Source of the DNA: a bacterium
Lineage (GTDB): Bacteria > Vulcanimicrobiota > Xenobia > Xenobiales > JADMJV01
Direction of reading: 5' to 3'
NCBI GenBank assembly: GCA_018266105.1
Contig: JAFEBA010000042.1
Coordinates: 22,216 to 86,215 of the forward strand
Length of the DNA stretch: 64,000 nt
The notes below the pieces were generated by a model. The model worked only from the letters and a program-made list of their open reading frames with translations, was not told the DNA's origin and did not search any database. Positions within the stretch are counted from its first letter, which is position 1. Each line of letters opens with the position of its first letter. The translations under genes and the position numbers were made by a program. Shown here piece after piece: positions 29,223 to 59,421 of the stretch.

Positions 29223-30011
29223 TCAGTTCTGCAATTCCGGCGGGCGGGCCCCGCAAATAAATGCATTCCAGTCAATGGGTTCAACCTTGGCGCGTTCCTT
29301 GGGACTGTCGGTCCCCATGGTCTTACCGTTACCCAGGTAGATCTCCACGTGACTGGCCTGTCCACGAGGAATTCCACGATTGTTGGGGTACCATAAGAAA
29401 ACCAGGTCACCAGGACGTAACTCGTTTCTGGAAATCTTGTGGCCAGCATAATGAGCCTGCAGACCTCGGGCGGTGGTTCGCCCGACCTTGGAACCTGCCT
29501 GACGTAAAGCCCAAGAAACCAGACCGGAGCAGTCGAACTGGTTTGGTCCTGAGGCGCCGAAAACGTACGGAGTTCCCTGCTTGGAAAGAGCCGCATCGAT
29601 CAGCTTTTGGACCTTGGGACTGGAGACCTTGGGGCCATTGGTAACACTGGCCTGACTCCCCACTGAACCGGCCGAACTGCCTGAACCGCCAGACGCCCCT
29701 GACCCGCCCTTGTGGTGGGTTCCTCTGCTCACATGGCCCAAATCCTGGCTCACGGGTGGCCCCTGAAAACCACCAAACCCAGTGTTTTCCATAAGTTGCA
29801 TCAACATGCCCATCATATTCAAAAGCAACTGATTGGTTTGCAGGCTGAGAGCCAACATCTGTACCTGAGCATCACAGGCCGGGGCTGTCAAGGTTGCGCC
29901 AGGCAGACGCCCCAGACTGACACCGGCGAGATCGGGGAGGAGCGGGGCGGTGGGACTGGCCAGGCCAGCTAAAGCACTAGATGCATTGAGGGGTTGTTGA
30001 ATAGCGAACAT
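29223..30011 (-). CDS. NlpC/P60 (C40) cysteine peptidase without signal peptide
   Basis: GTPYVFGASGPNQFDCSGLVSWAL (catalytic Cys) and ASHVEIYLG (His). N-terminal Gln/Leu/Met-rich region and a Gly/Ser linker. Confidence 0.85.
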   Translation of the reverse strand: MFAIQQPLNASSALAGLASPTAPLLPDLAGVSLGRLPGATLTAPACDAQVQMLALSLQTNQLLLNMMGMLMQLMENTGFGGFQGPPVSQDLGHVSRGTHHKGGSGASGGSGSSAGSVGSQASVTNGPKVSSPKVQKLIDAALSKQGTPYVFGASGPNQFDCSGLVSWALRQAGSKVGRTTARGLQAHYAGHKISRNELRPGDLVFLWYPNNRGIPRGQASHVEIYLGNGKTMGTDSPKERAKVEPIDWNAFICGARPPELQN

Positions 30012-44950: not shown

Positions 44951-47719
44951 TCAGGAGGCGTTGGCCAACCAGCTGACCAGAGTTTGACGCAAAGCCTCGT
45001 TGGAGATCGGTTTGCTGAGATAGTCGTTCATTCCGGCCTCCAAACAGTTCTGACGCTCACCCTTCATCGCGTGAGCGGTTAAAGCGATAATTGGAACCGT
45101 GGGGTTCTGACTCCGGATGCGGCGGGTGGCCTCATAGCCGTCCATTTCGGGCATCTGGCAGTCCATCAGAATGACGTCGTAGTGTAGATGATTCGCCATC
45201 TCCAGAGCCTCGCGTCCATTCGCGACGACGTCTACCTGCGCACCCATTTTCTTAAGCAAGTGAGTGGCCACCTTCTGATTAACCACGTTATCTTCAGCCA
45301 GAAGTACACGAAAGCCAGCGCAAGGGAGTTCGCCGCCGGCCTCGGGCAACTGAACCGAAGCGGGCCGGGCAGTCAGATGCAAAGGCACCTGAAACCAGAA
45401 GGTTGAACCTGCACCGATCTCGCTTTCCACACCGATGGTGCCCTTCATCATTTCCACCAGACTCTTGCAAATTGCCAATCCCAGTCCGGTTCCGCCAAAG
45501 ATGCGCGTGGTGGAGCTGTCCTCTTGAGAGAACTTCTCAAAGAGCAGGGGCACTTTGTCGGCAGCAATTCCCTTACCGGTGTCGTGCACCTCAAAGCGGA
45601 CCAGCCGGGTGTGTTCGAAGGTCTGCACGACTGTCGTGGTCAGCTCTACCCGCCCGCGCTCGGTAAACTTGAAGGCGTTGGTCAACAGATTGAGCAGGAT
45701 CTGACGGAGCCTTCCGGGGTCTCCTTCGACCCAAGCAGGCAACTGAGGATCCAGTCGCATCTCAAACTTCAAGTCGCTCTGGCGGGCGCGGAAGCCCACC
45801 AACTCCGCCAGCTCGCCTAAAGCCCGGGGCAAGTCATAGGGAATCAGCTCGAACTCCAATTTGCCAGCTTCGATCTTGGACAGATCGAGAATGTCATTGA
45901 GCACCACCAGTAAGGATTCGGCGGATTTTTGCACGGTCTGAGCGTATTCGCGTTGAGCCGGACTGAGTTCCGTCTCTAACAAAAGCTGATTCATACCCAG
46001 AACACCGTTGAGAGGAGTGCGAATCTCATGGCTGGTGTTGGCCAAGAACTCGGATTTCAATCGAGAGGCCGTCAGGGCGTGCTGGCGGGCCTGCTCCAGC
46101 TCAAGGTTCTGGTGGTAGAGTTTGTCATTGCTTTCGCGCAGGGCCCGAGTGGCCGAATGAGCCACATCCAGGGCCTTGTAGCGCGTGCTGACCAGACTGG
46201 CCAGAAGGGCGCCCAGCAGGCTGGTGAGAGCCAATCCGAAAAAGAGTAGCAGGCTGGCCTGGTAGGCAAAGGGGCTGGAATGAAAGCCTGCAGTGGCGGC
46301 ATAAACGATGATCCAGCGCCGGCCTCCAAAGAGAAGTTCGTCCTGACGCTGAAGCTTGGGACCGTTCAGAATTCCATCCCGGGATGAGGAGTAAATCAGT
46401 TGTTTTGAGTTCAGGCCCTGGTCATAAACCGAGAAGCCGATCTCAGCCGTATCCGAGGGTAGAATATCCGAAAGCAGGGATCGTCCCACGAAGGGTGAGT
46501 AGACCCAACCTGTGAACTCCCCCGTGCTTTGATCCCAGACGGGCACCAGCAAGAGAAATCCGCTTCCCTGGAGGCGATCCTGCACCAGGCGGAGGATTCC
46601 GGTGACTCTAGAGGATCCAGAATCTCGAGCCGACTCGGCGGCAGACCGGCGCTCGGGTTCGGAGCCGATATCCAGCCCCAAGGCCTGACGATTCTGAGCC
46701 AGGGGTTCGATCAAACGCACCACGTAGGCCCCACGAACCGGGTCCGGCGGACCCAGACGGCGAATCTCGAATTCGGGAGCCACCGAACGGCGAGCCTCGG
46801 CCACAAACGAAGCTTCCTGTTCCGGCCTGACCCGAACGATTAGACCCAGTCCCCGCATTCCGGTGTAACGGCTTTCCACTCTGGCCGTGCGCATATAGTC
46901 GAGCCATTTTTGACGAGTCAGCCTGGGATTAATGCTCACCAGCCCGGCCGCTCCGTAGAGAGCGGCATCATAGCTTTGCAGACGAGCCTTAATCCTTCTC
47001 CCAGCTTCGTCCGCCAACTGGTTAAAGTGCCGGCTGTCATCGCCCCTGGTCTGGGCCCGCAGGATGGTCCAGCCCCAGACCGTTCCGACCAGGGACAGCA
47101 GCAACACGCCGAATGAGAAAGCGTGCCAGAGGTAGTCAGAGGAGAGTTCGGAATCGAGTTGGCCCCGCTGGCGGAACTGCATATAGGCGGTCAAGATGGT
47201 GCCGCCGATGACCAGCACGCCGCAGGAATCTCCAAACCACCAGGTCACCCAGAGGTTCAGGAAGTCCTGTGCGGGCGCCAGACCAACCAGGCAAAGCGAG
47301 CCTGCGCCAAAGCTTGCGGCCAGAACGCAAGCCAACGGACCGGCCTCGGTCAAGCCTTGCAGAAACTCGATCAACCGGAAAGGCTGATGGGGGAAGCCGG
47401 TCTTCTTACGGAAGGCTCGGGCTCCCAGCCAGGCTTGTAGAGATGAACCGGAGGCGATACAGGCGGAACAAAGGACTGAACCGACCTCAAGATCGCCCTG
47501 GCTACTATTGAAGAAATGCAGGTTGAAAGCGAATGACGCAGTCCAGATCGCTGGCCAGAATCGTTCGCCCAGGATGAGCAGGGCCGCCAGTCCGATACCG
47601 GCTGGAGGCCAGACCGGGGTCACGTTGCCGGGTGGAATGGCCATAGCCCGACTCAGGCCTGCGGCAAGCAAGTTGGTGACCAGAATCAGGACAAAGACCA
47701 GAATATCGCGTCGATTCAT
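44951..47719 (-). CDS. hybrid sensor histidine kinase (MASE1-like membrane domain, CHASE-like extracytoplasmic domain, HisKA-HATPase, receiver)
   Basis: [24 protein letters not shown] (MASE1-like). H-box [35 protein letters not shown]. Receiver [11 protein letters not shown]...[13 protein letters not shown]. Confidence 0.9.
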
Positions 47720-47894: not shown

Positions 47895-48548
47895 ATGAAC
47901 TTCGGCACCATCAACATCTCAGGCGGCGTTTTCAATGGGAACGGCGCCTTCGGCGGCAACCAGGTTCGCGGCAGCGGCAAAGTCGTCGAGGAGCAGCGTG
48001 AAATCGCCGAGCACTTCGACCAGGTAGCCCTGAATGGCTCGGTGGATGTGGAAGTGGTGGCCGGAAAGTCGACCACCGGGGTCAAGGTCCAGGCGGATGA
48101 CAACATTCTGGCACTGGTCAAAACCCGGGTCGAAGATGGTGTTCTCCACGTTAATACAGAAGGGTCCTACAGCACCCAGAACGGACCCAAAGTCCTGGTC
48201 GAGCTCGATCACTCTCTGGTTGGGGCCGCCCTGAACGGCTCGGGTGACCTTAAAATCAGCGGGCAGATTGGCGATCGCTTCGCCGCCAGCCTGATGGGCT
48301 CAGGCGATCTGAGCATGAGTGGCCATGTGGCCAGCCTGGAACTCAGTTCCATGGGTTCAGGAGACTTCAACGGCCGCGGCCTGGTGGCCGATCAGGCCAG
48401 CTTACGCTGCATGGGTAGCGGCGATGCAACCGTTCACGCCGATCGCAGCCTCAATGTCCAGCTGATGGGCTCGGGCGACTGCTATTACTCGGGCAGCCCC
48501 CGAGTGACCAAGTCCATTCTGGGCAGCGGCGAACTCGAGCAGCTCTAG
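47895..48548 (+). CDS. DUF2807 / head GIN domain-like beta-helical protein
   Basis: Five GSGD repeats (GSGDLKISG, GSGDLSMSG, GSGDFNGRG, GSGDATVHA, GSGDCYYSG). No signal peptide. Confidence 0.7.
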   Translation: MNFGTINISGGVFNGNGAFGGNQVRGSGKVVEEQREIAEHFDQVALNGSVDVEVVAGKSTTGVKVQADDNILALVKTRVEDGVLHVNTEGSYSTQNGPKVLVELDHSLVGAALNGSGDLKISGQIGDRFAASLMGSGDLSMSGHVASLELSSMGSGDFNGRGLVADQASLRCMGSGDATVHADRSLNVQLMGSGDCYYSGSPRVTKSILGSGELEQL

Positions 48549-48782: not shown

Positions 48783-49829
48783 GTGAACATCCAATCCACA
48801 CAAAACCGCTTTCAGCCCCCAGCTCCAAAACCGGCGACTCCCGAGCCGGACAAAATACCACCTCTGGACGTGGTCGCTATCGGCGCTCTGGACACCGGAA
48901 CGGGATGGACCGGAATCAATAAGCCCATCCGCGTGACCGACCCCAAGGATCCGAACTCGGCTTACGTAGCCAAGAATAATACCGACGGTGCATTCATCAG
49001 CCTTCATCCCCACCACGATACACGCAAAGACAATATCACCGAAATTGTGATGTCGCACATCGTGGCTGACGAATTTAAAATGCCCTCGCTCACCTTTCGT
49101 GAAGGCAACCTGGTCACACCCGATGGACGCAAATCGCAGGTCGTGCTCAGCCCCTTGCGCACCGACTTCAAAACCCTCGAGCACGTGGCCGTGGAAGAGA
49201 TCAAGGACGGCGACCAGGCCGTGGCCTTAACCGTGCTTCAAGGGGGCCTGCTGGGCGACTGGGACTCCACCTTTAACGACAGCAACCTTTGGGTTCGCAA
49301 CGACGGGGTCGCAATGGGGGCCGATTATGGCTACGCCGGCAAACCGGGCATCAGCTGCCTGGGCGTGCCTTTCGCCAACATCAAAATTATGAAGGCTTTT
49401 GCCAATCGCGAAAACGTCACCAGCATCAGCGACCGCATCAAGAATCTCAGCGATGAAGAGATTCAGGCTATGGTGGAACGCCAGGGCAGCAAGTGGATTC
49501 GGGACTGGAATCCTCAGATCTCCAAAGAACTTTCCGATAACCTCATTTCCAATCGCAACCGGATGCGCCAGCACAACCCGTTTCTAAAATACGTAGAGGG
49601 CTTCCATCCGGGCCTCAAAGGTCCACTGCTGCATTCCAAATATCCAGCTTTCTTCTGGAAATGCAGCCAGGCTGAGGCGCCGCCCTTGAACCGACCGGAC
49701 CAATGGCTGGACGTACTGATTGCCGTGAGCAAATACAAAAAATCCGAGACCATGGCGAAATTCTTCACCTACATGCGGTCCCAGGTGCAGTCGCCTGAAG
49801 AGAAGGCGGCTGAGGCCAAAAAGGGTTAA
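48783..49829 (+). CDS. atypical protein-kinase-fold protein (hypothetical)
   Basis: GTG start 6-7 nt after AGAGGGA. Candidate kinase landmarks in the right order: AYVAKNN (beta3 Lys), EIVMSHIV (alphaC Glu), LLGDWDSTFNDSNLWV (D-x-D...N catalytic loop), GADYGYAG (DFG-like). Confidence 0.6.
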   Translation: MNIQSTQNRFQPPAPKPATPEPDKIPPLDVVAIGALDTGTGWTGINKPIRVTDPKDPNSAYVAKNNTDGAFISLHPHHDTRKDNITEIVMSHIVADEFKMPSLTFREGNLVTPDGRKSQVVLSPLRTDFKTLEHVAVEEIKDGDQAVALTVLQGGLLGDWDSTFNDSNLWVRNDGVAMGADYGYAGKPGISCLGVPFANIKIMKAFANRENVTSISDRIKNLSDEEIQAMVERQGSKWIRDWNPQISKELSDNLISNRNRMRQHNPFLKYVEGFHPGLKGPLLHSKYPAFFWKCSQAEAPPLNRPDQWLDVLIAVSKYKKSETMAKFFTYMRSQVQSPEEKAAEAKKG

Positions 49830-52123
49830 TGCAAATGCACATCACGCGCCTGACCAACCCCAGCCTGCCTCTCCGACGACTGCCCGCGCCCGCTCCCGGG
49901 TCGACCGACAAGGTCGAGCTGGGTGGAAGAACGACTCCCCTCGAACTGATCAAGGCACAGATCCCCTGCCCCAGACAGGATCCCAAAGATCCTCGCTTTG
50001 GCCTGGCCTGCTCAGCTTTCCTTCGCCCCGATCCCTTCTTTAGCGAGACCACCCGGTTGGTGGTGCACGCCGGGCGAACCGGCAACAACCCCAATGGGGT
50101 GATCGAGCTGCCGACTAGCAAACTGAACATGATTGCCACCGATCAGCTTCTCAGCCGAAAGGACCAGGTGCTGCTTGGTTTCGGCAGTCCGCGAGTGAGC
50201 CTGCTCATTCCCGGCCAGAATGGCTACCAGCGTCTCCAATCGTCACCGTTCTTTAGCAAGAAGTCACGTATCATTTCGGGCGAGACCATTCAGTCCGGGG
50301 TCTTCATCCGACCCCGCAACCTGCCAGCCGAGGCATTGCAGGCCTTGACCAAAGCCATGAACGAGCAGGTCGGCCAACGCAGCATCAGCTCGGCCAGGGC
50401 CAATGCCGAAGTGCTCAGCCAGGCGGGGTTCACCTCAGGTGGACGCAAGCTGAGCGGAAAGCTGCTGCCCTTTCGGCTCTTTCGCCAGATCGCGCAAAAG
50501 GGGCTCGAATTTCAGGGCCGGCCGGTTGCCTTCGACATCATCAGCACCAATAATAAAAGCCTGGACGACCACTTCCGCAAGGTCATCGGTCAGGAGCTGC
50601 ATAGTCCCTTTGACCCAAAGGTGGATCCGGAGGTCCCGGCTCCCAACGCGACCAACGCCTACCCAGATCCCTGTCAGCCTTCCGACCCTAACGCCCCTCA
50701 GGTGCGCATCCGCAATTCTCGGCCGGGCCTGGTTGGCAGTAGCCTGCGCTCGCTGCTGGGTGCCCACATCCTGTGGGAAGCTTTGCCCGACCCTAAGCTG
50801 GCTGACATCAACCAGTTTCTTCCTCAAGTGCTCAAGGACAAATTCCACGACGACAAGCCCCTGACGCGCGGAGAGAAGATCAAGTCCATCATCTTCAAAC
50901 CGGCGGTGGTCAGCTTCTTGCGCAAAAACATGGCCAAAGCCTTTGATGATGGGGGTCAGTTCGCCCCCAGACAGCTTGCCTCGATGCTTCGGGTTGCCGG
51001 TGAGGGTGAAGAGGTCCAGGCCGATTCCAAGGGGCGCATCAAATACAACCTGGTGATCTGCGGAGATCAGTCTCCGCGGGGAACGCACATCACCATCGCT
51101 CGCCTGAACGTCAAAAACAACGACTCGAAGGCCGATGATGTGCTCTCCAAACATGTACTGCTGGCCGGCTATGATCCGGATGTTCGCTTTGCCGGCGAAT
51201 GCTGGGCCGAACGCTACTCTCAATCTGACGGCAGCCAGGCCGTGCGCATCCACGTCAACAACAACTCGGGAACCTACCGTCCCAATGGACAGCAGGCGCA
51301 GGCCGCTGGCGAATTTCTGCGCAAGGCTCTACCGGGAGTGGAGATCGTGGTTCATGAGACCACCCCTCCCCCACCCACCGGCAAGCCCGATTACCTGCGC
51401 ACCTATGCGGTCTCGCCAGACCAGGCCACCGCCTTGCGAGGTCTGGCCGGCCAGAAGGTGACGCTCAACGGCGAGGAATACAAAATCCATCAGTTCAAGA
51501 CGGTCGAGTTCGATACCGAATTCTATGACACAGGCGACCGCAAATTGCTTAACGGTGGCGGAATGCTTCGCTCCCGCACCCGCTATAAGCCAGGCACCGA
51601 CCAGGTCAAAACCATCGACATCGAATCCAAACTGCCGCCGGCTCAGCCAGGTCCTTTTCAAGACCGGGCCAAGGGGTTTAGCTTTGACTCCATGGAGGAG
51701 TGGAAGGCCCACCAAACCTGGGTTCTCAGTCCGGAAAGCACGGACGAAGCCGTGGGCTTCGCTCGAACCATGGCGGGTGATGGTCGGCTGGAGGCGGTGG
51801 CTTGCAAGCACTCCATGCGGGAACTGTTCCTGTTAACTCCCAGTCAGCGCTGGTTCGGCTTTTTCAAGCCCCAGTTCATCCTCAGTCTGGACACCAACAG
51901 CATGCGCGCCCCGGGCCTGCCACGCCCTCAGCAGCCGGGAGCGGACACCTACCAAGTGCTCACCCCCCAGGCATTCACAAAACTGCCCTGGACCAAAAAG
52001 GTCGAACCAGAGCGAATCGATCAGCTCAATGACCTGTGTCGGCAGCTCTCACAAAAATTCCAACTCCAGGAGGTGGGCATGTCCCCTTACGCTGAGGGCA
52101 TGGCTCACTGGAAGAAAGGCTAA
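49829..52123 (+). CDS. large hypothetical protein (764 aa) with CYTH-like C-terminal region
   Basis: The ATG overlaps the upstream stop (TAATG). The C-terminal ~230 aa contain VEFDTEFYDTGDRKLLNGGGMLRSRTRYK, resembling the CYTH beta-strand pattern (D.Y.DT....L...g..LR.R). The N-terminal and central regions are unassigned. Confidence 0.65.
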   Translation: MQMHITRLTNPSLPLRRLPAPAPGSTDKVELGGRTTPLELIKAQIPCPRQDPKDPRFGLACSAFLRPDPFFSETTRLVVHAGRTGNNPNGVIELPTSKLNMIATDQLLSRKDQVLLGFGSPRVSLLIPGQNGYQRLQSSPFFSKKSRIISGETIQSGVFIRPRNLPAEALQALTKAMNEQVGQRSISSARANAEVLSQAGFTSGGRKLSGKLLPFRLFRQIAQKGLEFQGRPVAFDIISTNNKSLDDHFRKVIGQELHSPFDPKVDPEVPAPNATNAYPDPCQPSDPNAPQVRIRNSRPGLVGSSLRSLLGAHILWEALPDPKLADINQFLPQVLKDKFHDDKPLTRGEKIKSIIFKPAVVSFLRKNMAKAFDDGGQFAPRQLASMLRVAGEGEEVQADSKGRIKYNLVICGDQSPRGTHITIARLNVKNNDSKADDVLSKHVLLAGYDPDVRFAGECWAERYSQSDGSQAVRIHVNNNSGTYRPNGQQAQAAGEFLRKALPGVEIVVHETTPPPPTGKPDYLRTYAVSPDQATALRGLAGQKVTLNGEEYKIHQFKTVEFDTEFYDTGDRKLLNGGGMLRSRTRYKPGTDQVKTIDIESKLPPAQPGPFQDRAKGFSFDSMEEWKAHQTWVLSPESTDEAVGFARTMAGDGRLEAVACKHSMRELFLLTPSQRWFGFFKPQFILSLDTNSMRAPGLPRPQQPGADTYQVLTPQAFTKLPWTKKVEPERIDQLNDLCRQLSQKFQLQEVGMSPYAEGMAHWKKG

Positions 52124-52127
52124 GACC

Positions 52128-53450
52128 ATGAAGATTCAATCACTGCCGCCTGTCCGGCCACTGCCCCAAATCAGCATCCTGCATTCCCCCCAACCAGTGA
52201 GCTCGGACGAATATCAGCCCGGCCCCCGCGAACGCTGCAAAAGCGCCATTGGCAAACTGGGCGCCGGAATCGGTCTGACCGGGATCGGTGGCCTGGGCTA
52301 CGCAATGGGCGCGGCCATCGGGCACCCACTGGCCGGCAGCCTGGTGGGCGGAGCGCTGGGCACCGTCATCGGAACCCTGGTTGGCCACAAACTGGCCGAC
52401 AAACTGCATCCGGCAGGCAAGCAACCCCTGAAGTCCAGCCAATGGACCGACCCCACCCCGAGCACTTCGGAGAGCGTGGCCGCTATGAAAGCCGGCATCA
52501 GCGAGTTGCAAAATACCCTGCTGGCCTCGGGCCAGATATCCAAACTGGACCGGGGATTCCACCAGAAACAAAACTGGGGAGGCAAAGCCCACATCGAGTT
52601 TAATGCCGACCTGGCCCCTGAACTGCGCTCGGGCTTGCTGGCCAATCTGGCCGGCCAATCTGTGACCAGCGCCGTGCGCTTTTCGAACGGTCAGGGCTGC
52701 CCCTTTCACGACTCCAAGGCCGACGCTCGCGGTATGGCCGTGAAGATGAATGTCGACGGTCAGCAGGCCGATCTGCTGGCTACCGACCACATCACCTTTG
52801 CTCGCAACCCCGTGCAATTTATGAAGTTCGCCAAGGTGGCGGCCCTGATGCAGACCAAAGGGCCGCTGTCCGCTCTGGGTGCGGTCATCCGCAACACCGT
52901 GCACGGTGACTTTAAGGCAGCCGAGGCTCTGAGGATCATGGCGACCCTGATCCGCGACACCAGCGGCGGCATTGAGCATCCGGCCGCCAAGACCTACTGG
53001 ACTCAGGCCCTTCATGTGGGCGACCTGACCGGTCGCTTTGTGTTCAGCCCCGAAAGTGGGGCCAACACAAAGCCTCCCCGCTTCGGCAAAGACCCCAACT
53101 ACTTGCGCAAAAACATGGAGACGGATCTCTCACATGGACCGGTCTCGATGAAGATCGGGTTCGAAGCCTTCACCGAAGACAGTGCCTCCCGCGACGCTTC
53201 GCAGCACGGCCAACACATCACCCTGCCGGTCGGCCGGCTGGTCATCGAGCAGCGCCCGTCGCAAGGACGTGAGGCCGAGGAGCAACTGGTATCGAGGATG
53301 CAGTTCAACCCGGCCAACGGCTTTGATATGGCCGGGCCCTTGAACGAAAGCAACCGAGCTGAAATCTATCGACAGAGCGCGACCAATCGAGGCGCCCTGG
53401 ACTGGTCCGCCCCGGAAGTTCAACAATTTTTTGCAAAGAAGGCCCCATAA
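52128..53450 (+). CDS. catalase-related haemoprotein (mini-catalase) with N-terminal glycine-zipper segment
   Basis: ATG 8-9 nt after GAAAGG. Catalase landmarks in order: RGFHQKQ (distal His), AVRFSNGQG, DARGMAVKM, NRAEIYRQSATNRG (proximal Tyr). N-terminal GAGIGLTGIGGLGYAMGAAIGHPLAGSLVGGALGTVIGTLVG. Confidence 0.8.
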   Translation: MKIQSLPPVRPLPQISILHSPQPVSSDEYQPGPRERCKSAIGKLGAGIGLTGIGGLGYAMGAAIGHPLAGSLVGGALGTVIGTLVGHKLADKLHPAGKQPLKSSQWTDPTPSTSESVAAMKAGISELQNTLLASGQISKLDRGFHQKQNWGGKAHIEFNADLAPELRSGLLANLAGQSVTSAVRFSNGQGCPFHDSKADARGMAVKMNVDGQQADLLATDHITFARNPVQFMKFAKVAALMQTKGPLSALGAVIRNTVHGDFKAAEALRIMATLIRDTSGGIEHPAAKTYWTQALHVGDLTGRFVFSPESGANTKPPRFGKDPNYLRKNMETDLSHGPVSMKIGFEAFTEDSASRDASQHGQHITLPVGRLVIEQRPSQGREAEEQLVSRMQFNPANGFDMAGPLNESNRAEIYRQSATNRGALDWSAPEVQQFFAKKAP

Positions 53451-53451
53451 C

Positions 53452-55788
53452 GTGTTGATCACCACCAGCTCACCCGCCCGTTTGCCCCGGGCCCAGAAAG
53501 CCTTGGAAGAAAACCGCCTGCAAGATGCGGTGGATCTGCTAGAGCAGGCAGGAGCGGACCCCAGTGGTCAGAGTCAGGCCATGCTGGGGACGGCCCTCTT
53601 CCGTCAGGAAAAATATGAGCAAGCCTGTCTCCAGTACCAGGCCGCGCTGAGTAGAGACCCTCACAACGCAATCCTCAAGAACCAGTTGACGCTGGCTGAA
53701 CAGAACCGCCGCTCAAGGGTCGACCAGGATGTGTCCCGCAATGCCGTGCCGGCGCCCAACAAGCCGATCGAGCCCCGCCCAGGTCAAGGCTTCAGCAGAG
53801 TCGGGCAGGCCTTCGTGGAGCCACCCGTGCAAGGCCTCTTGCCCCGGCTGGGTCGGCTGGGCAAGGGTCTGGTCAAGACGGCAGGCTACGCCGCCGGAGC
53901 GGCCATTGGTGGCGTGCTGGGATTAGCCTCGCGGGTCTTCGGGCAACCGGAGAAAGGCGAAATGTGGACCACCTGGTCTCGGAAAAACCAGGTGAAGGGC
54001 CTGATGATGCTGGCCGAGATGCGCCGCAACCTCAACCAGAAGAATCTTTTCCACACCTATCCTGAGGGCGTGCTCACTGGCTTTGCCCGACCTGGCATGG
54101 AAGCTCCCGAATGGACACGATGGGCCCGCACCGCTGACGGCAGCTGGAACAACCCCGCAGACCCCCTGGAGGGGGCGGCTCTGACACGCTTCGGCCGCAA
54201 CATCAACCCAGAGCTGTGCAAAGTGGACGAAGCCAATCTGCTCACCCCCAATCCCCGGGAAATCAGCCGCCTGCTCATGACCCGCGATGAAGGCTTCAAA
54301 GCCGTGCCCTTTCTCAACATGATGGCTGCCGCCTGGATCCAGTTTCAAAACCACGACTGGGTCAGCCACGGCGACAACAATACCAACGAATTCTACGAAA
54401 TCCCGCTGGCACCAGACGATCCCGCACGCCAACGCCTCCATATGACGCACATGTTTGTACCCAAGACCAGTACTGACCCCCTGCGCCAGGCGGGCGAGAA
54501 GATTGCCGCGCCCGTGCACGTCAATGAAGTGACTCACTGGTGGGACGGCTCTCAGATCTATGGCAGCGACCTGGACACCCAGCAGAGTCTGCGTTCGCAC
54601 AAGGACGGTAAACTGACCCTGACCGAGGATGGTCGCCTGCCTGTGGACAGCCAGGGGGTGGAAAAGACCGGATTTCGCCGTAACTGGTGGGTCGGACTCT
54701 CCCTGCTGCACACGCTGTTCAGCCGCGAGCACAACGCCATCTGCGACATGCTCAGACAAAATCACCCGGATTGGGACGATGAAAAGCTTTTCCAAACGGC
54801 CCGGCTGATCAATGCAGCGGTGATGGCCAAGATCCACACGGTGGAATGGACACCAGCGGTGCTCCCAAACAAGACCTTGAACACGGCTATGAACGCGAAC
54901 TGGTACGGTGCCGCCACCAAATGGCTGCGCCACCCCGACCAGCGACAGACGGTGGCCAAATTTGATCTGCACGAAGAGATTTCAGGTGGCCTGGTAGGTG
55001 GACCCCTGGAGAAACACGGAGTTCCCGAATCACGCACCGAGGAGTTCACCTCGGTCTATCGTTTGCACCCGCTTCTTCCAGAGAGCCTGGAATTACGTCG
55101 AATTGGGGCCACCGGTCCGGCCGAACAGGTCCCGCTGGCCCAGACCCGTCAGAAAGCCTCACATGAACTGACCGACAAAGAGAACATGGCCGATCTGCTC
55201 AATAGTTTCGGCATTCAGTCTCCCGGTCAGTTGGTGCTGAACAATTACCCGCAGGCGCTCCAAGATCTGTCCGTCCCCGGTTTTGCCTTTTTTGACCTGG
55301 CGGCCGTGGATATTCTTCGGGACCGTGAAAGAGGCGTTCCGCGCTATAACGAATTCCGTCGACAGCTGCAACTGCAGCCGATCCACAGCTTCGACGATAT
55401 CAGTGACGACCCCAAGGTGGTGGAAAAGCTCAAAGCCGTCTACGGCGAGGATGTGGAGAAGCTGGATCTGCTGGTGGGCACCCTGGCCGAAGGCCATCGC
55501 CCGGAGAACTTTGGTTTTGGTGAGACCCTTTTCCAGGTTTTCATTCTCAACGCCAGCCGACGACTGCAGGACGATCGATTCTACACCACCGACTACAACG
55601 CGGCCACCTATACCCAGGAGGGTCTGGACTGGATCGACCAGGCCAGCATGAAGAGCGTACTGTTGCGCCACCACCCCGACCTGGCCGGCACCGGCCTGAA
55701 GAACGTGACCAATGCCTTTGAACCCTGGGATACGGGCGAGCTGGCCAAGGACCCGGGACGCCACCCACTAAACCAGTACAAGGCTTGA
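53452..55788 (+). CDS. animal-haem-peroxidase superfamily protein of the fatty-acid dioxygenase type (COX / alpha-DOX / LDS-like)
   Basis: GTG start 9 nt after GAAGG; an alternative TTG at 53431 would overlap the upstream gene. AAWIQFQNHDWVSH (distal His), FSREHNAICD, AKIHTVEWTP, TSVYRLHPLLPE (Tyr-x-x-His), RDRERGVPRYNEFR. N-terminal TPR-like helices and a Gly-rich hydrophobic segment. Confidence 0.9.
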   Translation: MLITTSSPARLPRAQKALEENRLQDAVDLLEQAGADPSGQSQAMLGTALFRQEKYEQACLQYQAALSRDPHNAILKNQLTLAEQNRRSRVDQDVSRNAVPAPNKPIEPRPGQGFSRVGQAFVEPPVQGLLPRLGRLGKGLVKTAGYAAGAAIGGVLGLASRVFGQPEKGEMWTTWSRKNQVKGLMMLAEMRRNLNQKNLFHTYPEGVLTGFARPGMEAPEWTRWARTADGSWNNPADPLEGAALTRFGRNINPELCKVDEANLLTPNPREISRLLMTRDEGFKAVPFLNMMAAAWIQFQNHDWVSHGDNNTNEFYEIPLAPDDPARQRLHMTHMFVPKTSTDPLRQAGEKIAAPVHVNEVTHWWDGSQIYGSDLDTQQSLRSHKDGKLTLTEDGRLPVDSQGVEKTGFRRNWWVGLSLLHTLFSREHNAICDMLRQNHPDWDDEKLFQTARLINAAVMAKIHTVEWTPAVLPNKTLNTAMNANWYGAATKWLRHPDQRQTVAKFDLHEEISGGLVGGPLEKHGVPESRTEEFTSVYRLHPLLPESLELRRIGATGPAEQVPLAQTRQKASHELTDKENMADLLNSFGIQSPGQLVLNNYPQALQDLSVPGFAFFDLAAVDILRDRERGVPRYNEFRRQLQLQPIHSFDDISDDPKVVEKLKAVYGEDVEKLDLLVGTLAEGHRPENFGFGETLFQVFILNASRRLQDDRFYTTDYNAATYTQEGLDWIDQASMKSVLLRHHPDLAGTGLKNVTNAFEPWDTGELAKDPGRHPLNQYKA

Positions 55789-56441
55789 ATCCCACACCGG
55801 CAAACGGCCTCAGGCAGGAGCATTCTCCGCAACTGAGAAACTCTTCCTCAAGATCCGCTGAATCCAAGCTTCTTCTCGAGGGCGCCTGGCTTTGCCGAAA
55901 GAGGTGCCCCTTGTCCCACGAAGACCCTTCCTATGCCCCTGGTTCCGTTGTTTATGAGCCGTTCCTAGGCCTTTGTACAGTGGTCAGCTGCAATCTGGAA
56001 ACCATGTTGGGATGCCAACAGCTTTTCTATGAGATCCGGCCCCGTCAGGGAGCGGCCGTGGTCAAGGTTCCCGCCGCACAAATGGCCACCCGAGGCATTC
56101 GGCCCTTAATGTCGGCACAGCAAATCGAAGAGACTCTCAACCGGGCCCAAACCTCTCAGTGGGAGGAAACTGAAGAGAATTACTCACTTCGGCTGCGCCG
56201 CTGGAATCAACTGTTGCGCTCAGAACAGAAGTCCGGGGGCTATGACTTTCTGAGCGAGTGGCATCATCTGGTGGCTCATGGAGTCCGGCTAACCACCCAG
56301 GAGACGGAACTGCACGGAAAGATCCAACGTTCGCTGCTTCAGGAAATAGCCCAGGTCTTGCAAATTTCGCCGAACAAGGCCAGTCTGAGGCTGAGCCGTT
56401 GTTGGGATAACATCAAGAAACCCAAGGAAAAGAAGAAATAA
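55785..56441 (+). CDS. CarD/CdnL family RNA-polymerase-binding transcription regulator-like protein
   Basis: PGSVVYEPFLGLCTVVS...FYEIRP...VKVPAAQMATRGIRPLMS matches the CarD_CdnL_TRCF N-domain pattern. The TTG at 55785 overlaps the upstream TGA (TTGA). An alternative TTG at 55911 is preceded by AAGAGG. Confidence 0.7.
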   Translation: MNPTPANGLRQEHSPQLRNSSSRSAESKLLLEGAWLCRKRCPLSHEDPSYAPGSVVYEPFLGLCTVVSCNLETMLGCQQLFYEIRPRQGAAVVKVPAAQMATRGIRPLMSAQQIEETLNRAQTSQWEETEENYSLRLRRWNQLLRSEQKSGGYDFLSEWHHLVAHGVRLTTQETELHGKIQRSLLQEIAQVLQISPNKASLRLSRCWDNIKKPKEKKK

Positions 56442-57951: not shown

Positions 57952-59421
57952 CTATGAGTTCTGTCTCAGGGTCAAAATCAGTAAAGCCAACAGTCCTAAC
58001 GCCAGTCCCGCTCGACCGAAGAGGCTCACCACCGAGGCGTAATGATCGCTGAGATTCAACACGCGGGCTGCCCCCAGGATCCTGGACCAGTCGTTGTCGG
58101 CGTGACCCGGCAGCAATAACTTCATCAGTCGAGCGTCGCGGATCAGTGCCGCCTGTCCGGCCAAGTAAGCCCAAAACCAGATCCAGGTCGCGCATGCCGC
58201 CAAAAAGCGCCTTGCAACCACAAAGAGCACACACAGACCGCCGGCCACCGCGGCCGGCAAGAGAATTCCGCCCCAATGTGCCGGCAATTCCCCTCCGAAG
58301 GCTCCGAGCAAGTGGCCGAGAAAATCCAGGGGCAGACTGATAAAGTCAAAGAAACCCAGAGAATTAGGCTGCAAAAAGTAGCTCAAGCTCAAAAACGCCA
58401 GCAGCAGTGCGGCGATGATGCGCAGCGTCTGTGTCACCCCCTTCTCAGCCTGACTGGAACGCAAAATGGTCGAATCGGCCGCCAGCAGGTCTTCAGTCGA
58501 GATGCGCGCGGAGGGGGACTCCGGATACTGAATATCCTCAACCTTGAAATGCGCAATCAGTGGCTCGGATTCGGCCTGGGCTGACTTGTCCACCATCCCC
58601 TGCTCGGCCCTCTCCAGAGCCGCCTCGACCTCGCCAACGCTGCGGTAGCGGGCTTCCTTCTTGAGGGCCAGCATCCGGGTTAGCACCGCTTCCAGGGGCC
58701 GAGAAATCTCGGGATTGTGCTGTCGAGGAGAGGTCAGGGGGGTGCCGCTGCTGATGCGTGTCACCGGGCTTTCGGGAATCTTGCGAGTCAGCATGGCGTA
58801 GAGAGTGGCACCCAGCGCATAGATGTCGGAGCGCTCGTCGGTGCCCCCCTCCTCTCCGTATTGCTCCAGAGGTGCGAAACCGGTCGAGCCCATGCCCTTC
58901 AGAAAGGTGGTGGTCTCTTTGCCTTCTACCAGGAACCGAGCGATCCCAAAATCGATCAGACGCACCTGGAGTTCGCGATCGATCATGATGTTGCTGGGCT
59001 TCAAGTCTCGAAATAGAATCGGTGGCCGATGCGCATGCAAGGTTCCCAGCACCGAACAAAGCTGTCGGGCCCAATTGAGTCCCTGTGCCTGGGAGATTTT
59101 GCGCTTGCTGCGGAGCCAGAAGGCCAGGGTATCGCCCTGAATGTATTCCATGGCGATGTAAAGGCGCTCGTTCCAGGCGAAGGATTCGTAGACCTGAACC
59201 AGGGCGGGGTGTTGCAGTGAGGCCAGAATGGCGGCCTCCCGCTCGAACTGGCGAACGGCCGCCTGATTCCAGGCCGGAATGCTCAATTCTTTGAGCGCCA
59301 CCGGCTGTTCTTGCAAATTCTGAGCCAGGTAAACCGTGCCCATGCCGCCCTGCCCGAGCACGGACATAATCAGATAACGCTCTGCCAGTATGGTGCCTTC
59401 CGCCAGTGTAGGTAAGCTCAT
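57952..59421 (-). CDS. Hanks-type Ser/Thr protein kinase with C-terminal multi-TM region
   Basis: GQGGMGTVY (G-loop), VALKEL (Lys), FRDLKPSNIMI (catalytic loop), IDFGIAR (DFG), GFAPLEQ. Four to five C-terminal hydrophobic helices. Confidence 0.9.
   Translation of the reverse strand: MSLPTLAEGTILAERYLIMSVLGQGGMGTVYLAQNLQEQPVALKELSIPAWNQAAVRQFEREAAILASLQHPALVQVYESFAWNERLYIAMEYIQGDTLAFWLRSKRKISQAQGLNWARQLCSVLGTLHAHRPPILFRDLKPSNIMIDRELQVRLIDFGIARFLVEGKETTTFLKGMGSTGFAPLEQYGEEGGTDERSDIYALGATLYAMLTRKIPESPVTRISSGTPLTSPRQHNPEISRPLEAVLTRMLALKKEARYRSVGEVEAALERAEQGMVDKSAQAESEPLIAHFKVEDIQYPESPSARISTEDLLAADSTILRSSQAEKGVTQTLRIIAALLLAFLSLSYFLQPNSLGFFDFISLPLDFLGHLLGAFGGELPAHWGGILLPAAVAGGLCVLFVVARRFLAACATWIWFWAYLAGQAALIRDARLMKLLLPGHADNDWSRILGAARVLNLSDHYASVVSLFGRAGLALGLLALLILTLRQNS

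Follow-up and report, generated by a model that had tools for sequence, protein, structure and literature searches.

We examined a window of 64,000 nucleotides (assembly GCA_018266105.1, contig JAFEBA010000042.1, positions 22,216 to 86,215 of the forward strand) in which a catalase relative and a dioxygenase, both haem enzymes, are encoded side by side in a four-gene operon of a Candidatus Xenobia (Eremiobacterota) genome. Positions given below are those of the window. The four genes lie on the plus strand and are packed tightly in the order u1, u2, mini-catalase and DOX. The first two genes of the module, u1 (48783..49829, 348 aa) and u2 (49829..52123, 764 aa), encode conserved proteins of no detectable family. 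They are followed by a catalase-related haemoprotein, referred to here as the mini-catalase (52128..53450, 440 aa, ATG start), and by a haem dioxygenase of the alpha-dioxygenase (alpha-DOX) type with a tetratricopeptide repeat (TPR)-like head, referred to as DOX (53452..55788, 778 aa, GTG start). The stop codon of u1 and the start codon of u2 share one base (TAATG), u2 is separated from the mini-catalase gene by four bases, and a one-base gap lies between the mini-catalase TAA (53448-53450) and the GTG of DOX at 53452. The start codons of the mini-catalase and DOX are supported because the N-termini of homologues agree with them (MKIQS and MIIQS for the mini-catalase, MLITT and MQITN for DOX). 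A scan of 47.6-57.2 kb for promoters and terminators gave counts at or below the shuffled expectation. A preliminary description, made from the sequence alone, had paired a catalase-related haemoprotein with a dioxygenase of the cyclooxygenase (COX)/alpha-DOX family; both genes and every motif that it quoted were found where it had placed them, and the family assignment was borne out by Pfam, Protein Data Bank (PDB) and Foldseek searches.

DOX residues 226-744 matched Pfam An_peroxidase (PF03098) with an E value of 2.9e-116. In the PDB sequence search, E was 4.6e-116 for rice alpha-DOX (4kvj), 5e-110 for Arabidopsis alpha-DOX (4hhr) and about 3e-22 for COX-2; for the true peroxidases myeloperoxidase and lactoperoxidase it ranged from 1e-9 to 1e-12. 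Identity to rice alpha-DOX reached 42.5% over the 518 aligned columns of the HMMER alignment. The key residues to be compared, namely the haem ligands, the catalytic Tyr, a stacking Phe pair, the substrate channel and the His311/Arg559 carboxylate clamp, were taken from the literature (PMC8720084), and the register of the rice numbering was set by the sole position that differs between 4kvj (wild type) and the Y379F entry 4kvl. Residue-by-residue mapping then gave the same residue at 14 of 15 key catalytic or substrate-channel positions (His157, His311, Trp315, Thr316, Ala331, Phe375, Tyr379, His382, Phe549, Phe552, Ile553, Ala556, Arg558 and Arg559 in rice); the sole mismatch was rice Met325, which is Leu476 in DOX. 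The key residues were invariant or nearly so among 42 DOX family members.

Mapped onto rice alpha-DOX, the catalytic domain covers 53950..55785. Its distal His301 (rice His157; codon 54352-54354) and His306 belong to the motif WIQFQNHDW..H (residues 295-306), REHN occupies residues 425-428, and VYRLH (535-539) carries the catalytic Tyr536 (rice Tyr379; codon 55057-55059) and the proximal His539 (rice His382; codon 55066-55068). Arg703/Arg704 are encoded at 55558-55563, and His462/Trp466/Thr467 and Phe532 were located in the same domain by the rice alignment. Non-homology of the VYRLH Tyr with the catalytic Tyr had been named beforehand as the outcome that would overturn the assignment; this Tyr aligned with rice Tyr379. 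When the AlphaFold model of DOX was searched with Foldseek, four alpha-DOX entries ranked first, with 4hhr and 4kvl at the top (E about 1e-26), at target-normalised TM values of 0.72-0.76 over about 645 columns that cover the whole alpha-DOX chains. We concluded that the 778-aa protein belongs to the plant/cyanobacterial alpha-dioxygenase branch of the peroxidase-cyclooxygenase superfamily. On sequence grounds, DOX would be expected to form 2-hydroperoxy fatty acids. The PDB title of 4kvj, 'alpha-dioxygenase with hydrogen peroxide', fits activation of alpha-DOX by H2O2.

The N-terminal part of DOX consists of three segments. Residues 10-88 (53479..53715) form five confident helices (pLDDT 84-95), so that the TPR-like helices mentioned in the preliminary description are real; this head matched Pfam TPR_2 at a sub-threshold E value of 3e-4, and many homologues carry precomputed TPR hits. 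A variable linker (residues 89-128, 53716..53835) is predicted to be disordered, with pLDDT below 50 at 94-130, and is poorly conserved in the alignment. It leads into a Gly-rich hydrophobic helix (residues 129-166, 53836..53949; modelled as helical over 129-163), which includes GYAAGAAIGGVLGLASRVFG at residues 145-164 and has a peak hydropathy of 1.34 (Kyte-Doolittle, 19-residue window). Gly149 and Gly164 are invariant among 42 homologues of the TPR-DOX family; the helix has 7-9 Gly and 3-4 GxxxG motifs in the Xenobia clade, compared with 4-7 Gly and usually 2 GxxxG elsewhere. In a profile alignment of DOX residues 120-300 with rice alpha-DOX, the match began only at Trp175 (rice chain position 44); the Gly-rich helix therefore sits where plant alpha-DOX has its first ~40 residues. 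As judged from this alignment, only the TPR head and linker (residues 1-128) are truly extra relative to the plant enzymes. The idea that the Gly-rich helix is a novel transmembrane anchor was rejected as to its novelty, given the invariance of Gly149 and Gly164 across phyla and the position at the plant-helix site.

TPR-bearing DOX proteins are widespread. More than 7,700 relatives of DOX were retrieved from the database, and hundreds of those among the matches listed have 52-54% identity at 98-100% coverage and a length of about 790 aa. In a scan of one genome per species, TPR-DOX was confirmed at 571 loci in Chloroflexota, Bacteroidota, Actinomycetota (including Mycobacterium metagenome-assembled genomes), Burkholderiales, Myxococcota and others, the cultured isolate Segetibacter aerophilus being among the carriers. 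The TPR head, the variable linker, the hydrophobic helix and the motif EVWTNWYRR are kept throughout the family; cyanobacteria and Pseudomonas also have shorter, TPR-less forms.

The neighbourhoods of TPR-DOX genes contained other recurring genes. A di-haem cytochrome c, with two CxxCH motifs and a Pfam RoxA-like_Cyt-c match (E 1.5e-13), is encoded near TPR-DOX in seven loci (L014, L015, L021, L024, L029, L068 and L074; about 1.6 kb downstream in L015) and could act there as an alternative partner for handling peroxide or oxygen. Two types of large regulator adjoin DOX: an adenylate/guanylate cyclase-AAA_16 protein of ~1,090 aa (L037, 4445..7711, minus strand, and 12 other actinobacterial or proteobacterial loci) and an AAA-LuxR (GerE) protein of ~880 aa (L053, 5295..7925, plus strand, and 11 other gammaproteobacterial or cyanobacterial loci). 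Their recurrence suggests dedicated transcriptional or signalling control in those lineages.

The mini-catalase scored 16.3 bits against Pfam Catalase, under the 25-bit cut-off, and its best PDB sequence match was weak (3e4w, E 5.4e-5). Its AlphaFold model had a pLDDT of 88.8. Foldseek placed 3e4y (MAP_2744c) at the top (E 3.8e-15, target-normalised TM 0.73), followed by catalases, coral allene oxide synthase (AOS) 1u5u (E 1.2e-11) and chanoclavine synthase. From Foldseek and residue mapping, the catalase-fold core spans residues 106-440 (52443..53447), i.e., ~335 aa; the preliminary description had given about 340 aa. By alignment, the distal pair Phe144-His145 (His codon 52560-52562) lies in RGFHQKQ (residues 142-148), RFS and RGMAVK occupy residues 184-186 and 201-206, Asp220 (GAC, 52785-52787) stands at the distal-Asn position (Asn148 in catalase), and the proximal Arg410 and Tyr414 (Tyr codon 53367-53369) lie in RAEIYRQSATNR (residues 410-421). 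An alignment of 50 relatives showed no variation at Arg184, Ser186, Arg201, Phe393, Arg410 and Tyr414, and at least 90% of them have His145.

The protein has the features of the mini-catalase type: a core of ~335 aa (the class covers ~300-370 aa) that lacks the C-terminal and NADPH-binding parts of true catalases, a proximal Tyr with an Arg four residues upstream, a distal His and RFS. Those of true catalases were not found, as the Pfam score is below threshold, the Val-His pair is missing and the core falls short of ~480 aa or more. The distal His is preceded by Phe in 76 of the 125 relatives whose motif could be recognised, by Leu in 22, Gln in 15, Ala in 5, Ile in 3, Val in 2, and Met and Cys in 1 each, and by Thr in none. 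Relatives are few: 12 close homologues were matched in a word-indexed search, and 308 cluster representatives among 1.84 billion were found at E up to 0.001. A metagenome scan with the mini-catalase alignment gave three distant loci only. We concluded that the mini-catalase, whose catalase-fold haem site combines a Tyr ligand with a distal His, represents a rare, divergent Phe-His clade.

Ahead of the core, residues 33-93 (52224..52406) were modelled by AlphaFold as a glycine-zipper-like helix-turn-helix hairpin, with helices at 33-64 and 67-93 (pLDDT 75-84) and a turn at His65-Pro66; GAGIGLTGIGGLGYAMGAAIG corresponds to residues 45-65. The hydropathy peaks of the two helices were 1.34 and 1.65 (Kyte-Doolittle, 19-residue window), values on either side of the usual limit for transmembrane segments. 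The hairpin scored 18.7 bits (E 0.0017) against Pfam Gly-zipper_Omp (PF13488), under the 25-bit cut-off, and E 0.15 or worse against other glycine-zipper models (PF13441, PF05433); 'glycine zipper' is used here as a descriptive term only. All six catalases linked to u1-u2 carry the hairpin, which is absent in P0006, P0007, P0009, P0010 and P0133. It was present in five of 11 aligned close homologues and in the L093 orthologue, the others having Pro/Ala-rich extensions with Cys-Pro-Phe/Val. By these alignments, the hairpin is specific to a small Xenobia clade. The earlier proposal that the N-terminal extensions of both enzymes are unusual was thus half right: it holds for the catalase hairpin, which is clade-specific, and fails for DOX, whose TPR head, linker and Gly-rich helix are common to a large bacterial family. 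A 'GYAxGAAIG' string shared by the two window proteins was considered as a sign of specific pairing between mini-catalase and DOX and was set aside as hypothesis only, because the L081 and L093 pairs share only the general GxxxG pattern and composition could explain the likeness.

Several cysteines were observed in the mini-catalase and its relatives. The GQGCP motif (Cys191, 52698..52700) is invariant, and a conserved Cys37 (52236..52238) precedes the zipper in the window protein. Zipper-less relatives have a Cys-Pro-Phe/Val motif that resembles the haem-regulatory 'CP' motif; it lies in the N-terminal extension in P0006-P0010, P0012 and P0133, and at the extreme C-terminus in two DOX-adjacent genes (L042, 10615..11892; L001, 3481..4728).

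The first two genes of the module recur with the catalase in related Xenobia. In L081, L082/83, L087, L090 and L093, orthologues of u1 (54-77% identity over aligned sequences) stand immediately 5' of those of u2 and of the zipper catalase, and u2 orthologues (50-67% identity over aligned sequences) occupy the same position in all six loci, the window included. The zipper catalase directly follows u1-u2 in six of six loci. DOX accompanies this trio in four of the six, in three arrangements: it lies directly downstream of the catalase in the window and downstream of it in L081, upstream of u1 in L090, and upstream and divergent in L093, where a major facilitator superfamily (MFS) transporter gene intervenes. 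L082/L083 and L087 have no DOX within 8 kb. The contig of the zipper-less relative P0009 carries the catalase gene followed by genes for 344 aa and 833 aa, again without DOX; the 833-aa gene is probably the u2 homologue P0288. The zipper catalase is tied more closely to u1-u2 than to DOX, and from this tight linkage it follows that the catalase/DOX pair is part of a larger unit. The transporter genes at two of these loci, the MFS gene of L093 (3379..4626, minus strand) between DOX and u1 and an AI-2E-family transporter gene of L087 (9381..10613, plus strand) after the catalase, were observed as hints of small-molecule import or export.

Searches of Pfam, NCBIfam, PADLOC and PDB gave no match for u1, nor for u2, whether searched as a single sequence or as a profile. 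Of the 43 members of the u2 family, most come from Xenobia/Eremiobacterota and none has a Pfam domain; the more distant homologues of u2 stand alone, without a catalase, and a metagenome scan with the u2 alignment returned nothing. With regard to anti-phage defence, no PADLOC match was obtained for any of the five proteins searched. A protein or lipid kinase had been considered for u1 by eye (GDWDSTFNDSN, ADYG) and was rejected: JNK1 reached only E 0.91 in the PDB profile search, and hhalign against the Ser/Thr kinase domain encoded elsewhere in the window gave a probability of 0.2%. A CYTH-like or patatin-like C-terminus of u2, also suggested by eye, was dropped after no match was found in Pfam (E up to 10), NCBIfam, PADLOC or PDB.

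All four operon proteins and most Xenobia orthologues begin with 'M-[QKNI]-I-[QSNI]-[ST]' followed by a Pro-rich stretch; examples are MNIQS, MQMHIT, MKIQS and MLITT in the window and MQIQS, MIISG and MQINS in orthologues. DOX orthologues of other phyla lack this signature, which might serve as a targeting tag peculiar to the lineage or reflect a bias at translation starts. Similar starts were noted in two other window open reading frames (ORFs) on the minus strand, 10393..11652 ('MSYISAGYNP' plus a Pro-rich stretch) and 29223..30011 ('MFAIQQPLNAS...'), and the signature may therefore be shared by a broader class of proteins encoded here.

Adjacency was assessed from the 80 best TPR-DOX loci and a handful of Xenobia contigs. 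Beyond Xenobia, catalase relatives adjoin TPR-DOX in Ideonella, Burkholderiaceae, Deltaproteobacteria and Tepidiformaceae. Fusions were seen in both orders, P0096 being TPR-DOX-catalase and L007 catalase-linker-TPR-DOX, and catalase-An_peroxidase fusions made up 14 of the 19 longer representatives scanned (from 150 listed catalase relatives). Four fusions were inspected (P0164, P0182, P0158 and P0186), and all have alpha-DOX-type motifs (AKIHTVEWTP, YRMH or YRLH); the SRRL/TRRL arginine motif is found in three of them but no longer in P0186, whose C-terminus is degenerate. P0181 and P0182 contain clear transmembrane segments (hydropathy 1.9-2.7). The nearest relatives of the mini-catalase outside Xenobia, P0134 (1142 aa) and P0135 (1179 aa), are 38-40% identical to it. 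A full-text search of the available paper library yielded no paper that joins catalase-related proteins with alpha-dioxygenases, except reviews naming both separately.

Around the operon, four ORFs were recorded. Upstream, ORF 44951..47719 (minus strand, 922 aa) resembles, in its sequence features, a hybrid sensor histidine kinase, and ORF 47895..48548 (plus strand) encodes a DUF2807 protein (Pfam E 7.9e-30). Immediately downstream, ORF 55785..56441 (plus strand, 218 aa, TTG start) overlaps the DOX stop by four bases; no convincing family match was found for it and tblastn gave no counterpart in the related Xenobia loci, and it may lie outside the module. Further downstream, ORF 57952..59421 (minus strand) looks like a membrane-anchored Ser/Thr protein kinase, again by its sequence features.

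The window pair was compared with known systems. Plant alpha-DOX (rice 4KVJ/4KVL, Arabidopsis alpha-DOX1 4HHR) shares the catalytic domain, residues and fold of window DOX, and likewise has a hydrophobic helix before a conserved W-x-[KR] motif. Plant alpha-DOXs are regarded as monotopic membrane proteins through N-terminal amphipathic helices, and two cyanobacterial alpha-DOXs, CalDOX and LepDOX, have been characterised (PMC8720084). Unlike the plant and cyanobacterial enzymes, window DOX has ~128 extra N-terminal residues (TPR and disordered linker), has a Gly-rich helix with GxxxG repeats in place of the plant N-terminal helices, and is encoded beside a catalase relative, to which it is fused in other bacteria. 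MAP_2744c, a 33-kDa protein of Mycobacterium avium subsp. paratuberculosis (3E4W/3E4Y), is the best sequence and structure match to the mini-catalase core and is of similar size, but identity in the structural alignment is only 20%; judged by chain lengths (~300-320 residues) and aligned ranges, it would have nothing matching the ~105-residue extension with the hairpin. The coral and cyanobacterial AOS and hydroperoxide lyase (HPL) enzymes (Plexaura cAOS 1U5U/3DY5; Capnella cHPL) resemble the mini-catalase in their fold, in having a haem ligated by Tyr and in being physically coupled to a fatty acid dioxygenase. Their partner is a lipoxygenase fused to them, whereas that of the mini-catalase is a haem DOX, and the distal site of cAOS has Thr66-His67 and Asn137 (PMC5617202) where the window protein has Phe144-His145 and Asp220. 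Glycine-zipper hairpins (Gly-zipper_Omp PF13488, Gly-zipper_YMGG, 'glycine zipper 2TM' PF05433) resemble the window hairpin in composition, GxxxG periodicity and predicted two-helix architecture; the window hairpin falls below every cut-off, shows no signal peptide or lipobox by eye and is attached to an enzyme.

The preliminary description had likened the pair to that of Nostoc punctiforme, in which a linoleate 10S-DOX adjoins a catalase-related 10S-hydroperoxide lyase (Brash et al. 2014, summarised in PMC13049297). The shared logic is that of a COX-superfamily tyrosyl-radical dioxygenase beside a small catalase-fold haemoprotein consuming its hydroperoxide; the pairing of a dioxygenase with a catalase relative was upheld by the comparative genomics. 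As the closest relative, however, the Nostoc pair does not stand: it is a thematic analogue, because window DOX is of the alpha-DOX type with a carboxylate clamp. The Nostoc enzyme is a C10 dioxygenase and the window enzyme is alpha-DOX-type, which implies C2, the two being set apart here by comparison with solved structures; the window further differs in the Phe-His clade and Gly-zipper hairpin of its catalase relative and in a four-gene operon that includes two proteins of no detectable family. What is already known is the logic of a dioxygenase with a catalase relative. New in the window pair are the class of dioxygenase, the signature at the distal haem, the putative membrane hairpin and the addition of two genes.

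On balance, the evidence speaks for a module of two haem enzymes, for which we infer that DOX would make a fatty acid hydroperoxide, most likely at C2, and that the catalase-fold partner would handle a peroxide. In the proposed mechanism, the DOX haem would be oxidised by peroxide to give a Tyr536 radical, which would take a hydrogen from C2 of a fatty acid bound carboxylate-in, and addition of O2 would yield the 2-hydroperoxy fatty acid. The mini-catalase would then reduce, dehydrate or cleave the 2-hydroperoxide to a 2-hydroxy acid, a 2-oxo acid, or a chain-shortened aldehyde plus CO2, and would thereby supply the peroxide-handling half-reaction that alpha-DOX lacks. The catalase hairpin and the Gly-rich helix of DOX would hold both enzymes at the membrane surface near the lipid substrate, the Gly-rich segments of the two may pack against each other, and the TPR head would probably dock a protein partner. 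Membrane association through the Gly-rich helices is plausible, by analogy, because of the plant alpha-DOX precedent and the transmembrane fusions, and the repeated fusion of catalase and alpha-DOX domains favours a hand-over of product. That two haem enzymes act on fatty acids at the membrane as part of the u1-u2-catalase-DOX operon is the reading that we prefer, and we hold it at about even confidence.

A number of observations weigh against this preferred reading. Only about six of the 80 TPR-DOX loci have an adjoining catalase relative, two of the six u1-u2-catalase loci are without DOX within 8 kb, and P0134 and P0135 are C-terminal domains fused to GMC oxidoreductases and not to DOX. The mini-catalase does not have the Thr-His distal pair of the hydroperoxide-converting catalase relatives, the 'Thr-His connection' reportedly named in a 2016 title by Mashhadi and co-workers. 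Its Asp220 replaces a distal Asn that is present in 10 of 10 close homologues, and either a change of function or a mere variant of the sequence may lie behind this. With hydropathy values of 1.3-1.65, the Gly-rich helices reach at most about the 1.6 that is usually required of a transmembrane segment, and confidence in the DOX model is only moderate (pLDDT 67.8), falling below 50 around residues 510-535 and being weak near the active site. Literature searches found no characterised member of the TPR-bearing DOX subfamily and no biochemistry for any member of the Phe-His mini-catalase clade.

Four other explanations were weighed. In the one that comes nearest to the preferred reading, though clearly less probable, the mini-catalase guards against peroxide or tunes it (a 'peroxide tone' for the DOX haem), protecting membrane and enzyme, and could serve other oxidases as well. 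It retains its weight because of the missing Thr-His pair, a property of the whole clade, the GMC fusions and Asp220. Many GMC oxidoreductases produce H2O2. The closest structure, MAP_2744c, is described by its depositors as a catalase-related protein and reportedly has peroxidase activity; the L082 cluster adjoins ferritin/rubrerythrin-like and AhpC/Redoxin-family genes, a hemerythrin gene is adjacent on the P0009 contig, and the 4kvj title points the same way. Against a peroxide guard, the catalase-type Val precedes the distal His in only two of the 125 relatives, Asp220 would be expected to weaken catalase activity, the mini-catalases characterised so far are poor H2O2 catalases, and repeated alpha-DOX fusions in both orders suit substrate hand-over better than general protection. 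It is rather unlikely that the true unit is a Xenobia-specific u1-u2-mini-catalase trio with DOX as an optional accessory or frequent neighbour. The invariable position of the zipper catalase after u1-u2, the two loci lacking DOX and the P0009 contig would all be explained in this way, and the N-terminal signature shared by all four proteins may simply mean that they are co-targeted. On the other hand, DOX accompanies the trio at four of the six loci and does so in three arrangements, which points to selection for proximity; catalase-DOX adjacency and fusions occur independently in phyla without a close u1 or u2 homologue, and distant u2 homologues occur without a catalase.

The two remaining explanations concern the chemistry. 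A Nostoc-like linoleate 10S-dioxygenase with a catalase-related hydroperoxide lyase, which would give C8 volatiles and oxo-acids from unsaturated fatty acids, accounts for the same kind of gene pairing as in Nostoc punctiforme (PMC13049297) and for the Tyr-x-x-His motif of DOX. We regard it as improbable: the similarity of DOX is overwhelmingly to alpha-DOX (E about 1e-116, compared with about 1e-22 for COX-like enzymes), the His311/Arg559 clamp and Thr316, which position C2 next to the Tyr, are identical in DOX and do not vary among its homologues, and the mini-catalase clade is without Thr-His. Least probable by far is a generic haem peroxidase with a small catalase for oxidative-stress defence and no fatty acid chemistry. 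The Pfam family name 'Animal haem peroxidase', the database name 'peroxidase family protein' and the catalase fold of the partner would suit it, but the whole alpha-DOX fatty acid channel and the catalytic Tyr are kept, the mini-catalase is below the Pfam Catalase threshold and has no Val-His, and alpha-DOXs have very little peroxidase activity.

The outcome for the family is that a very large uncharacterised TPR-alpha-DOX family and a 'Phe-His' clade of catalase relatives have been defined, with u1 and u2 flagged as candidate new components. Plants and a few cyanobacteria are the known sources of alpha-dioxygenases, whose 2-hydroperoxide is thought simply to fall apart. We put forward, tentatively and as a possibility well short of probable, that the Phe-His mini-catalases are a new functional class partnering alpha-DOX-type enzymes in an unrecognised bacterial pathway of fatty acid alpha-oxidation or 2-oxygenated lipids, in which they would determine what becomes of the otherwise unstable 2-hydroperoxy acid. 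The Xenobia version of this pathway would be a four-protein membrane assembly of u1, u2, zipper catalase and TPR-DOX, held by GxxxG packing and TPR docking, whose members might be co-targeted through their shared 'M-x-I-x-S/T plus Pro-rich' N-termini. If true, a dedicated haem partner, encoded beside the dioxygenase or fused to it in many bacterial lineages, would mean that bacteria channel the 2-hydroperoxide into a specific product (2-hydroxy acid, 2-oxo acid or aldehyde), with a bearing on bacterial membrane-lipid modification, on signalling and on the biocatalytic production of fatty aldehydes.

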